In this document: positions 5,396-26,542 of the stretch, in pieces
Position numbering within the stretch: the stretch's first letter is position 1
Layout: every line of letters begins with the position of its first letter
Assembly: GCA_965229165.1 (NCBI GenBank)
Contig: OZ245863.1
Span: 1,750,387-1,814,386 of the forward strand
DNA length: 64,000 bases
Direction: 5' to 3'
Source: Bacteroidia bacterium
Lineage (GTDB): Bacteria > Bacteroidota > Bacteroidia > B-17B0 > Aurantibacillaceae
Program-made: the position numbers and the translations under genes
Notes under the pieces: model-generated
What the model was told of the DNA's origin: nothing
Database searches by the model: none
What the model saw: the letters and a program-made list of their open reading frames with translations, nothing else

Positions 5396-6448
5396 ATGAA
5401 GAAAATAGGTATTCTAATCCTGATTTTAATTGAAAGTGCGGCTTACAGTCAAAAAGCTACAACCGATCCTTATTTTCTTGAAACACGAGATACTATTTCA
5501 GCGTTTGGACCGGTAAGTATTACTCGAAATATTTTGGAAGATAAAAAAGGCAATATTTGGTTTGCTAGCTGGCAGGGCATTGTGAAGTATGACGGTAAGG
5601 TGTTTACAAATTACACGTTAAAAGAAAACCTTATTCATTTTCACGTTTACTCTATTATGGAAGATAGAAGCGGTAACATTTGGTTCGGCACCATTCGTGG
5701 CGGAGCCTATAAATATAACGGCAAAAGCTTTACCCTTTTCACAACAAACGACGGCCTTATTGATGATTTAATTGGCTGCATGATGGAAGATAAGACCGGA
5801 AACATTTGGTTTGGTACAGATGGAGGAATAAGCCGTTGCGATACTTCAGTTGCATTCAAGACAAGCTCTATACCTGGGATCACAACATTATCAGGTTTAC
5901 CGTTAACGTCTAAAAAAGGTTTTACTAGTTATACTACTCAAAACGGCCTTTGTGGTGATAGGGTTAATTCAATTACACAGGATAAGAGCGGAACGATATG
6001 GATAGCCACTCGTTCAGGTGTTAGTTGTTACAAGGGTAAAACCTTTACCAATTTTACAATTAATGGCCTGCCTTTTACAAATGTTCGTTGCATAAAAGAA
6101 GATAAGAACGGCAAGATTTGGATTGGCGGCCAGGATGGGCTGTATTGTTATAATCCTTCTTTAATAGGCGAAGCAGCATTAACAAAATTAATGTCTAATT
6201 TTATATGTTATATTTATGAAGACAAAGCTGGAATTTTTTGGATAAGTACAGGCGAACGGGACGCGGTAGACGGAATGGCTTTATATAAATATGACCAAAA
6301 AAATTTCACCAAGTTATTAGTGAAAAATAAAGCTGGTGACTCTCAGGTGTTTGAAATTACAGAAGACAAAAGCGGCAGTATTTGGTTCGGCACTATGCAA
6401 GGCCCTTGTCGTTACGATGGAAAAACGTTTACCTATTTTAAGAAATAG
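5396..6448 (+). CDS. Two-component regulator propeller (Reg_prop) repeat protein, exported
   Basis: Repeated I.ED..G.IWFGT..G motifs; signal peptide; no kinase domain. Confidence 0.88.
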   Translation: MKKIGILILILIESAAYSQKATTDPYFLETRDTISAFGPVSITRNILEDKKGNIWFASWQGIVKYDGKVFTNYTLKENLIHFHVYSIMEDRSGNIWFGTIRGGAYKYNGKSFTLFTTNDGLIDDLIGCMMEDKTGNIWFGTDGGISRCDTSVAFKTSSIPGITTLSGLPLTSKKGFTSYTTQNGLCGDRVNSITQDKSGTIWIATRSGVSCYKGKTFTNFTINGLPFTNVRCIKEDKNGKIWIGGQDGLYCYNPSLIGEAALTKLMSNFICYIYEDKAGIFWISTGERDAVDGMALYKYDQKNFTKLLVKNKAGDSQVFEITEDKSGSIWFGTMQGPCRYDGKTFTYFKK

Positions 6449-6468
6449 CGCGTGAGGTTAAGTAAACA

Positions 6469-7185
6469 TTATCTAAACTGCTTATAGTCATCTTCACCAA
6501 TTGTTGCCCAACGTTTTTTAGCAAATTCAAAAAAGTCTGTTTTAGTTTTTAATTTATCGTCGGGTGTAAAATTGTTTTTGTTATTTATTTTAGGGTTACC
6601 GGCTCTAATAAGTGTTTCGCCTCTCATAGCATACTTGTCTGTTTTTTCGTAAAGAATTAGTTTTTGTGTTGCAGGAGAAACATCTCCACGACAGGATAAT
6701 TTATAAATGAAAGTTATTTCGGCAAACCCGTCCTTGTCAATATCCGTAATGGTTAAACCACGCTGATAAAAACCAGCATACATATCTACGCCAAAGCAAA
6801 CAACCAAGTCGTAAAGTTTCCAAAGTCTGCTGTATGTTTTTTCCGATTTCTTTTTAGTAAACAAATAAGCGTTAATTTCGGCTTTTGCATTAATTTCACC
6901 GGTTGTATCTTTAAAATTAAATCCGCCGGTTTGAGTAAGAAGTAGAATGTTTGTACCACTACTATCTGCCCATTTTAAGGCTTCCACAACAATTCCGCGG
7001 TATTCAATTTCTTTAGGAATTTCTCCAAAACCAATGCTATCAAGTTTAAGTGTTGAGTTTTTGAAGTCGGAGATGGACAGCCAAAGCGTACTTTTCATAG
7101 ATTCTTCTTTATCCCGCAATGTTGTTTGCTGTGCGTACGTTAGTGTTTGGATACAAATGATAATAATAACGAATAGTATTCTCAT
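6469..7185 (-). CDS. Exported hypothetical protein
   Basis: Signal peptide; TDIDKDGFAE loop and YKLSCRGDVSP motif; 238 aa. Confidence 0.6.
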   Translation of the reverse strand: MRILFVIIIICIQTLTYAQQTTLRDKEESMKSTLWLSISDFKNSTLKLDSIGFGEIPKEIEYRGIVVEALKWADSSGTNILLLTQTGGFNFKDTTGEINAKAEINAYLFTKKKSEKTYSRLWKLYDLVVCFGVDMYAGFYQRGLTITDIDKDGFAEITFIYKLSCRGDVSPATQKLILYEKTDKYAMRGETLIRAGNPKINNKNNFTPDDKLKTKTDFFEFAKKRWATIGEDDYKQFR

Positions 7186-15750: not shown

Positions 15751-16326
15751 ATGCAAATAGGTTTATTTTTTGGTTCCTTCAATCCCATACACGTGGGACA
15801 TTTAGTGTTAGCTAATTATATGTTAAGTTATACACCATTACAAGAAGTATGGTTAGTGGTTAGCCCGCAAAATCCATTAAAAAATAAAGCAGGCTTATTA
15901 AATCAAAGCGATAGGTTGCATTTGGTTAACTTAGCTTTAGATCAGCATTCAAAAATTAAATCGAGTAATATTGAGTTTAAATTAACACAACCGTCTTATA
16001 CCATAAATACGTTAGCTCATTTAAAAGAAAAATATCCTAAGCACATATTTAGCTTAATTATGGGACAAGACAATCTGCAAAGTTTTGCTAAATGGAAAAA
16101 TTATGAAGAGATTTTAAAAAATTATAACATTTACGTTTATCCTCGTCCTAATTGTTCACAAAGCCCTTTCGACAGTCATAAAAATGTTCATATTACTGAG
16201 GCGCCTGTCATGGATATTTCTTCAACATTTATTAGAAATGCTATTAACGAGAAAAAAGACGTGCGTTTTTTTATGCATCCGAATGTTTGGAATTACATTG
16301 ATGAGATGAATTTTTATAGAAAGTAA
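15751..16326 (+). CDS. nadD: Nicotinate-nucleotide adenylyltransferase
   Basis: FGSFNPIHVGH, SYTINTL, IMGQDN, ISSTFIR. Confidence 0.96.
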   Translation: MQIGLFFGSFNPIHVGHLVLANYMLSYTPLQEVWLVVSPQNPLKNKAGLLNQSDRLHLVNLALDQHSKIKSSNIEFKLTQPSYTINTLAHLKEKYPKHIFSLIMGQDNLQSFAKWKNYEEILKNYNIYVYPRPNCSQSPFDSHKNVHITEAPVMDISSTFIRNAINEKKDVRFFMHPNVWNYIDEMNFYRK

Positions 16327-17321
16327 TGTTGGTTTATAATCCCATTATTCAAAAACTTAATACGCCATTTGATTATGAATTAGATGTGTTGCGCTTAGAT
16401 ATGCTTCACGAAAGTATTAGTGGTAACAAATGGTTTAAATTAAAATATAATTTACAAAAAGCACAGCAACAAAATATAAATACAATTGTAACTTTTGGCG
16501 GTGCATACAGCAATCATATTGCTGCAGCAGCTAATGCTTGCAAATTTTTTAAGCTAAAATCTGTTGGAATAATAAGAGGCGAAGAAATAACATTAAACCC
16601 AACACTTATTCAAGCAAAAGAAAACGGAATGATATTAGAATTTGTTTCGAGAGAAACGTATTCTAAAAAAAACGATAAAGAATTTAAAAATTATCTTCAA
16701 ACTAAATATGGCAACCATTATTTAATCCCCGAAGGAGGAAATAATTTAGAAGGTGTTTTGGGTTGTACTGAAATTATAAAATCCGAATGGGACTACGACT
16801 ATGTTCTCTGTGCATGCGGCACAGCAACTACATATGCTGGTATTGTGTCAACTATAAATAGCAACTCAAAAGTTTTAGGCATTAGTGTATTAAAAGGCGA
16901 AAATAAATTGCCGAATGACGTGGAATTAATTCTCAAAAAATTAACACACCATGTCGACGAAGGAAGCGATCTCTCGCCCTCAAACGATTGCTTTGTCACT
17001 GAAATAGCTCATCGTACTGATGTAAAGATTAACGGTAACGAAGAATTTGAGACTGAAATTATTTCTGAAAACTGCATTACGTCAAACTATAGTTTTAACG
17101 GCTATGCCAATTATTACCAACCTTTAATTGATTTTAAAAATAATTTTGAGACGCAATACAATATTCCCTTAGATTATGTTTATACCAATAAACTGTTTTT
17201 TGCTGCATTTAATTTAATGCTAAAACAAAAATTAAAAAAAAACGCAAACGTTTTAGTCATCCACAGTGGGGGTTTACAAGGTAATAGGGGCTTTGAAGAA
17301 AGATTTATTAAAAAACCCTAA
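16326..17321 (+). CDS. PLP-dependent ACC deaminase/D-cysteine desulfhydrase family protein with an in-frame palindromic insertion
   Basis: ISGNKWFKL, TFGGAYSNH, PEGG, CGTATT, LDYVYT, IHSGGLQG. Confidence 0.9.
   Translation: MLVYNPIIQKLNTPFDYELDVLRLDMLHESISGNKWFKLKYNLQKAQQQNINTIVTFGGAYSNHIAAAANACKFFKLKSVGIIRGEEITLNPTLIQAKENGMILEFVSRETYSKKNDKEFKNYLQTKYGNHYLIPEGGNNLEGVLGCTEIIKSEWDYDYVLCACGTATTYAGIVSTINSNSKVLGISVLKGENKLPNDVELILKKLTHHVDEGSDLSPSNDCFVTEIAHRTDVKINGNEEFETEIISENCITSNYSFNGYANYYQPLIDFKNNFETQYNIPLDYVYTNKLFFAAFNLMLKQKLKKNANVLVIHSGGLQGNRGFEERFIKKP
16950..17022. repeat. Degenerate REP/RPE-like palindromic element inside the coding sequence
   Basis: GC-rich CATGTCGACGAAGGAAGCGATC...GATTGCTTTGTC...CATCGTACTGATG in an AT-rich gene; same layout as the element at 26450. 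Confidence 0.65.
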
Positions 17322-26441: not shown

Positions 26442-26449
26442 AAAATACC

Positions 26450-26513
26450 TCATTGCGAAGAAGGAAACAAACTAACACTGAATGAGTTTGCTTAGGCCAC
26501 CGCCTCGCAATGA
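26450..26513. repeat. Intergenic REP-like palindrome
   Basis: Perfect 9-bp inverted repeat TCATTGCGA (26450-26458) / TCGCAATGA (26505-26513), with an inner CAAACT/AGTTTG stem. Confidence 0.75.
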
Positions 26514-26542
26514 CGAACACAAAACAAAATAAAAATTAAATT

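Follow-up and report, generated by a model that had tools for sequence, protein, structure and literature searches.

Can a palindromic repeat enter the coding sequence of a Bacteroidota enzyme without breaking its reading frame, and what then becomes of the repeat and of the enzyme? The question is raised by a GC-rich block inside the gene of a PLP enzyme, found in the window (the whole stretch of DNA analysed here, 64,000 nucleotides). The original prediction for this block was that of a palindromic repeat inserted in frame, in the manner of the Rickettsia palindromic elements (RPEs). In-frame insertions of this kind have been described for the CGTC-tagged REP superfamily, which includes Neisseria dRS3 (Di Nocera, De Gregorio, Rocco 2013, BMC Genomics 14:522; PMC3733652), and the R. 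conorii families CGTC-1 and CGTC-4 were equated with RPE-6 and RPE-4, respectively (PMC3733652). These repeats follow simple rules, having an unpaired terminal CGTC tag (variants TGTC and CCTC), an 8-9-bp stem whose first bases are AT, and a loop of 4-5 nt (PMC3733652). They are mostly head-to-head dimers and sometimes form clusters, and intragenic dimers add 20-30 residues in frame (PMC3733652). CGTC REPs were reported from five phyla including Bacteroidetes; among the matches listed in the supplementary strain list, the entries labelled Bacteroidetes are two Chlorobi genomes (PMC3733652).

The host enzyme and its in-frame block

The gene and the parts of the block are as follows, in window coordinates.

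16326..17321, + strand: PLP-enzyme host gene, 331 aa (ORF)
16947..17022, + strand: probable copy of the palindromic repeat, in frame, 76 nt (nhmmer envelope, orthologue gap, GC island)
16947..16973, + strand: left arm of the coding copy, counterpart of the subfamily consensus CGTCATTGCGACGAAGGAAGCAATCTC (22/27 bases identical)
16974..16985, + strand: apical loop of the coding copy, 12 nt, encoding SPSN and variable among family members (ungapped alignment of three coding copies)
16986..17022, + strand: right arm of the coding copy, from GATTGCTT... to ...ACTGATG, a decayed GATTGCTTCG...TCGCAATGACG (28/37 bases identical to L055)

The protein of this gene (P0001) belongs to the ACC deaminase / D-cysteine desulfhydrase family of fold-type II PLP enzymes. 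PF00291 (Pfam PALP) and TIGR01275 (E 2.7e-28) match it, the latter with 99 bits where the curated cutoff is 289, so that the protein is no equivalog but a relative. At the positions invariant across 120 homologues (39 columns), P0001 has kept the residue, K35 of the GNK motif included. An AlphaFold2 model with these 120 homologues as input has a mean pLDDT of 90.3 and a pTM of 0.89. Its best Foldseek match is 1j0a_A, an ACC deaminase homologue (TM 0.78), and it also superposes on the chains of 4d8t, the Salmonella D-cysteine desulfhydrase (TM range 0.72-0.78).

The block covers codons H208-D232 plus the first base of V233 and is translated as HHVDEGSDLSPSNDCFVTEIAHRTD, flanked by GISVLKG and YSFNGYA. 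GC content is 0.47-0.48 across 16940-17019 (60-nt windows), compared with about 0.30 in the remaining gene and 0.33 in the 3.75-Mb genome. Sequence and ORF thus agree with the prediction of a GC-rich island that leaves the frame of a PLP enzyme unbroken. The island had been placed at 16950-17022 (about 73 nt); its end stands, while its best start lies 3 nt upstream, giving 16947-17022 and 76 nt. The imperfect inner stem that had been described is indeed present in the block (GAAGCGATC/GATTGCTT(T)). As a whole, the block folds as DNA with -8.6 kcal/mol (z -0.89), no better than shuffled sequence.

Orthologues without the insert

Orthologues were sought among 5.8 billion proteins, and genus-wide genome matches were then added. 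The insert is borne by P0001 (the query), by P0002 (86% identity, on two metagenome contigs), by P0003 (72% identity) and by a copy in genome G074, and is absent from the next relatives, which have 65-70% identity and 308-311 residues. That a complete genome, G074 and two metagenome assemblies all have it shows that it is not an artefact. The loop between the conserved helix L and the I-x-G-N strand has 31 residues in the bearers and exactly 10 in all insert-less orthologues (23/23), a net gain of 21 aa, or 63 nt. A gap in the orthologues had been foreseen and is found, at this net size rather than the expected 25 or so residues; the rival possibility of an equally long, unrelated loop in the orthologues was seen in none of the 23 compared. 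In addition, a separate 5-residue insertion, IHPEQ, lies near residue 50 (about 47-52) of P0002 and is not present in the window protein.

The element measures 76 nt but the net gain is only 63 nt, so we assume that about 13 nt of the native loop were lost at or after insertion. The native loop of insert-less proteins carries a conserved I/M-x-P motif. Two candidate remnants of that loop were considered, LSPSN in mid-insert for the I-x-P motif and FYAKK in P0003 for IYPKK. Both were dismissed, since their positions differ in the ungapped alignment of the copies and since the loop and right arm of the repeat explain both regions.

A compound palindromic repeat family

Intact copies of the family run from CGTC to GACG. 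Their outer stem (ATTGCGAG/CTCGCAAT) surrounds an inner one (GAAGCAATCTC/GAGATTGCTTC), the apical loop is variable, and the right arm has a small side hairpin. The outer stem has 8 bp, begins with AT and encloses 45-70 nt. Most of 45 aligned intergenic copies start with CGTC and end with GACG, a few having variant ends, and in these copies the variable stretch between the conserved arm cores is 3-33 nt long, mostly 13-16. If a single arm is treated as the unit, its stem is 5 bp long (ATTGC/GCAAT) and its loop 10-13 nt. In full copies two arms are paired in inverted orientation; given that arms also occur alone and in tandem arrays, the complete element amounts to a head-to-head dimer made from a smaller REP-like unit. 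Rfam has no family for these repeats. Members in this genome other than the coding copy are the following.

26448..26515 of the window, + strand: intergenic member, still a good palindrome (nhmmer E 1.2e-9 in the window, 1.6e-7 genome-wide)
2129155-2129230, 1378868-1378946, 2057182-2057258, 279826-279896, 2813765-2813798 and 2030654-2030678 of the genome (G000:C1): other copies and fragments

The intergenic member of the window, the 26450 element, is placed between a stop codon and the next start, has no long frame through it and folds with -12.2 kcal/mol (z -4.05); its genome-wide E value improved from 1.9e-4 with a 26-copy family profile to 1.6e-7 with a 45-copy profile. The copy at genome position 2129155-2129230 is an intact palindrome (-19.4 kcal/mol, z -6.5), and when used as a query it retrieved at least 25 copies in G027, 16 in G015, 9 in G020, 8 in G029, 30 in G074 and 19 in G067. 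The distribution of the repeats is patchy, covering 12 of 41 genomes of the class. A profile from other genomes recovered, in this genome, 2129155 (E 2e-18), 1378868 (E 8e-10), 26450-26515, the half copy at 2813765, and 2057182. When the intergenic copies of this genome were checked for credible host genes, none was found in one. This genome has a single coding copy, the one in the PLP enzyme. Two stop-to-stop frames of 99-110 codons overlap the copy at 2129155.

A second palindromic family, TGTCATGCTGACGAAGGAAGCATCTCT...AGATTCTTCGTTCCTCAGAATGACA, was observed at L075-L079 and L084 (genomes G054, G065 and G048). It has the same tag-stem-tail layout with different stems, and has the GACGAAGGAAGC core in common with the subfamily of the coding copy.

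The block as a probable decayed copy of the repeat

Direct searches gave little sign of a relationship between the block and these repeats. BLAST of a 91-nt block against its own genome returned only the self-match, and BLAST of the 26450 element returned one weak relative (2129155-2129230). The short arm motifs occur in the genome at chance frequency, with only one CATTGCGA...TCGCAATG pair. The 26-copy family profile gave the insert an E value of 24 genome-wide and 0.02 in the gene set, and with the broad 45-copy profile the coding copy went undetected in genes. These results agree with an explanation in which an ordinary expansion of the loop, specific to the lineage (by slippage, duplication or drift), added the 21 residues and the likeness to the repeat arose by chance: the block folds no better than shuffled sequence, the broad profile misses it, copies in the genome are few, and the simple arm motifs are not over-represented.

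A different picture emerges from the homologous block of metagenome contig L010, which is less decayed. BLAST with this block led to a same-genus subfamily with the left arm CGTCATTGCGACGAAGGAAGCAATCTC, and identical arms were found in intergenic copies of G074, G065, G067 and G015. To avoid circularity, the subfamily profile was limited to independently retrieved intergenic copies, namely eight from G074 and G067 only, obtained with an independent intergenic query. In nhmmer searches, model positions 5-72 of 74 align with the coding block (envelope 16947-17022), both arms being in order. The block scores E 4.3e-5 when the window is searched, 0.0025 for the 3.75-Mb genome and 2e-6 for a set of three genes; the significance of these values hinges on the choice of the subfamily with the GACGAAGGAAGC arm, which was picked after the insert had been seen; as roughly 3-4 subfamilies were available, the correction for this post hoc choice is small. 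The homologous coding blocks match the same profile with E 1.6e-8 (L012) and 3.1e-8 (L010).

The individual bases tell the same story. The left arm agrees with the 27-nt consensus at 22 positions in the window copy and at 23 in each of the two other coding copies, and because the mismatches of the lineages do not overlap, each of the 27 consensus positions survives in one coding copy or more. In the right arm, comparison with the intergenic right arm of G074 (L055) shows 35 of 37 positions surviving in this way.

A chance expansion of the loop is hard to reconcile with a subfamily profile that matches end to end, with collinear arms, in each of the three coding copies (gene set, E 2e-6 to 1.6e-8; whole genome, 0.0025), or with an arm consensus that can be recovered in full from the coding copies. 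The block is, moreover, a GC island, and the loop has the same length in all 23 insert-less orthologues. We consider chance expansion highly improbable, and conclude that the coding block is very probably an old, decayed copy of the compound palindromic repeat, lying in frame in a predicted surface loop. The central claim of the original prediction, that of a palindromic repeat in frame in a PLP enzyme, is thus borne out by the end-to-end profile match together with the orthologue gap. The similarity to intergenic repeats on which it depended exists (subfamily profile, E 4.3e-5 in the window), and the likeness to the 26450 element was rightly noted, both sequences matching one family profile.

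Age and number of insertions

The three coding copies align without gaps, having the same length (76 nt) and the same ends. These ends have decayed to CACC...GATG in the window copy and are still CGTC...GACG in the L012 copy. Measured against shuffles, the fold z scores of the coding copies are -0.9, -0.9 and -0.2, compared with -6.5 for the intact copy; folding no better than shuffled sequence, they have lost the palindrome to decay. For the comparison of the window lineage with the L012/G074 lineage, dS amounts to 0.89 within the insert and to 1.08 across the remaining gene, and the closeness of these values fits an insertion that took place before the lineages split.

A tree built without the insert columns complicates this history, as the four bearers do not form one clade and the insert-less P0004 is sister to P0003/G074 with support of 83/85. 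The bearers could accordingly owe their inserts to two independent insertions of the same subfamily into one loop (P0001/P0002 versus P0003/G074), or to transfer of the segment by homologous recombination. At least 30 family copies in G074 would have provided a source, and the apical loops of the two lineages are identical at only 6 of 12 bases. However, the node concerned is a weakly resolved polytomy and a single clade of bearers is not rejected by the AU test (p 0.10). Two separate events would also have to account for start, end and 76-nt length being equal in both lineages with no gaps, and for a dS that is nearly as high in the insert as elsewhere in the gene, which is what an insertion older than the split would give. 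Repeated insertion or recombinational transfer thus seems unlikely, and we favour a single ancient insertion.

We propose that one repeat dimer entered the loop after helix 195-207 of the PLP enzyme, most likely in a single event that preceded the split between the lineages of this genome, metagenome contig L010 and G074. With 76 bases gained and about 13 target bases lost, the frame would have been preserved (net +63 nt, +21 aa), and the enzyme would have tolerated the insert because the site is a surface loop. Thereafter, the insert would have lost its DNA hairpin and drifted under relaxed constraint as a passenger peptide in a gene under purifying selection.

Consequences for the protein

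In the AlphaFold2 model, residues 212-223 have a pLDDT below 50, and helix 195-211 is followed by a coil that comprises residues 212-234. Mapping the insert on the predicted structure, as had been suggested, places it in this low-confidence coil, and the insert is accordingly predicted to lie in a surface loop and to be disordered. Outside the insert, dN/dS is 0.14-0.24 and the host gene remains under purifying selection. Within the insert dN/dS is 0.47-0.81, 2-6 times higher, an estimate that is imprecise as it comes from only 25 codons.

Has the inserted peptide been co-opted as a functional surface feature, for example in regulation or in oligomer contacts, instead of persisting as a neutral passenger? 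Such a role could explain why the insert has been retained over a divergence of dS about 1, why its dN/dS is below 1 (0.47-0.81), and why the peptide of the left arm is partly conserved across lineages, as (R/H)(H/Y)(V/C)DEG, then two variable residues, then L. Against it, the ratio derives from 25 codons, is imprecise and is still 2-6 times that of the remaining gene, the peptide of the right arm differs almost wholly between lineages, and AlphaFold2 predicts disorder in the insert; the 23 insert-less orthologues compared give no indication that the segment is needed. Co-option is, in our view, quite unlikely, and a tolerated passenger in a surface loop is the most economical reading. On the co-option reading, Ssn-linked hairpin repeats (discussed below) may, more broadly, recurrently supply new loops to Bacteroidota proteins.

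Repeats in other coding sequences

The PLP-enzyme family has been struck at least twice, at different loops. In the orthologue P0092 (gene at 808-1863 of L154), a 58-nt head-to-head dimer of canonical CGTC REPs is present in frame at L154:1324-1381, in a loop different from that of the window protein. This dimer has the CGTC tag, 8-bp stems and 5-nt loops, is read as RHAEFISASQQILKQVQNN, and still folds (z -4.5). Shorter inserts are found in P0029 and P0055 at the site of the P0092 insert.

Among 24 further repeat copies examined in G074, one lies in frame in a Type_ISP_C gene (L159:699-771, G074:C32). This gene encodes a C-terminal specificity domain of a Type ISP restriction enzyme (PF18135, E 1e-68), the insert reads VIANEVKQSQTKNETASYLAVT, and the copy is of the same family as the window coding copy and less decayed.

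A putative GIY-YIG nuclease within repeat arrays

A small ORF whose start follows two half copies of the repeat led to P0121, a 103-aa single-domain GIY-YIG protein (PF01541, E 3e-13). Its sole PDB relative by sequence is 1zg2, a UPF0213 protein (E 9e-5). GIY-YIG genes of 99-103 aa were located inside dense arrays of full and half repeats at the following positions.

L136:2050-3160 and 6160-6860 (G074:C45)
L138:1147-2303 (G067:C12)
L057:1090-1652 (G015:C4)

Ten close homologues with 55% identity or more were compared, from nine further genomes in three families of the class; nine of them have repeats within about 150 nt, usually on both sides, and the one with no family copies nearby is G027b. 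Counted by locus, family copies accompany the gene at two loci of G074, one of G067 and two of G015, and beside 8 further close homologues in 8 other genomes. None of five distant homologues, the best match in this genome among them, is flanked by repeats. Across 41 genomes, the presence or absence of close GIY-YIG genes and that of BLAST-detectable repeats show only a loose correlation; the strong link between the two is physical adjacency.

The intergenic space between a gene for a 338-aa lipoprotein-like protein and a 396-aa gene is a repeat-rich hot spot that accumulates insertions. It holds about 0.9 kb of repeats in G067 (L137:1478-2394), and the equivalent space in G074 (L136:2043-6861) contains about 4.8 kb with repeats, two GIY-YIG genes and a 795-aa ORF.

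Such an arrangement has recently been described for the Ssn nucleases, small GIY-YIG enzymes which cut single-stranded DNA beside hairpin repeats starting with CGTCAT (NTS/SRM) that flank their genes (Chenal et al. 2025, Nat Commun 16:2388, PMC11893778). That study concerns cleavage of single-stranded DNA and an effect on transformation, not transposition, and does not discuss in-frame coding copies (PMC11893778). The present system is similar in its hairpins beginning with CGTCAT, in the repeat-gene-repeat arrangement around a single-domain GIY-YIG gene of about 100 aa, and in the occurrence of arrays. It differs in that this genome has no close homologue of the nuclease. The best GIY-YIG homologue in the genome (2788491-2788712) has 39% identity and no repeats beside it. 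The published SRM pattern, searched as a regular expression on both strands, matched none of the 45 family copies and gave 2 matches in the whole genome, while in a control both NTS test strings were matched. As the GIY-YIG-linked family of Bacteroidota falls outside the SRM pattern, surveys that use this pattern will undercount such repeats.

We infer that the spread of the repeats may depend on small, Ssn-like, GIY-YIG single-strand nucleases, whose genes lie within repeat arrays in related genomes, and regard the chances that the nuclease has a role in repeat mobility as roughly even. With no close nuclease gene and only about 6-8 repeat copies, the family appears to be inactive in this genome. 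The suggestion that insertion is a process under way here consequently appears not to hold, the coding copy being ancient as well.

Relation to known repeats and significance

By its CGTC...GACG ends, its patchy dispersal and its arrays around small GIY-YIG genes, the repeat family probably belongs with the CGTC-tagged REPs and the Ssn-related motifs. Like the CGTC REPs, it has a terminal CGTC tag, a stem starting with AT, and head-to-head dimers that are sometimes clustered, and the 25 residues encoded by the present coding copy fall within the published range of 20-30. The P0092 insert agrees exactly with the rule of an 8-bp stem and a 5-nt loop. In contrast to CGTC-1 to CGTC-4, whose stems are 8-9 bp and whose loops are 4-5 nt, the 8-bp outer stem of the present family surrounds another stem as well as a long, variable loop, and the tail is CTC where the published families have CCA.

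The Rickettsia RPEs (Ogata, Claverie and colleagues; refs 13, 14 in PMC3733652) offer the closest parallel for the coding copy, as in both cases an in-frame palindrome occupies a site compatible with the fold of a housekeeping-type protein, in a gene that stays functional, and in both cases the repeat is found between genes as well as within them, at loop positions. They differ in the phylum of the host, in number (one coding copy here, many in Rickettsia) and in age, the present copy being old and no longer palindromic. The likeness to RPEs that was originally proposed turns out to be closer than supposed, since the CGTC tag is common to the superfamily that includes RPE-4 and RPE-6, a link that rests on the assignment of these two elements to CGTC families by Di Nocera and colleagues (PMC3733652). 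A further resemblance is to the REP/REPIN-RAYT systems of Proteobacteria, whose hairpin repeats are likewise short, pair into inverted dimers and border the gene of an enzyme thought to act on them; unlike the GIY-YIG nuclease and the CGTC tag seen here, theirs are a Y1/HUH transposase and a GTAG tag.

This is not a new kind of element, and in-frame insertion of REPs outside Rickettsia has already been published. What statistics, orthologue gaps and a structural model add is that in-frame repeat insertion of the Rickettsia type shapes the proteins of free-living Bacteroidota as well. They also show how such an insert ages, with the DNA hairpin decaying and the peptide drifting under relaxed constraint while purifying selection continues to act on the gene. 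Annotators who meet peptides such as HCDEG... or VIANEVKQS... within otherwise conserved proteins should take them to be repeat-derived.
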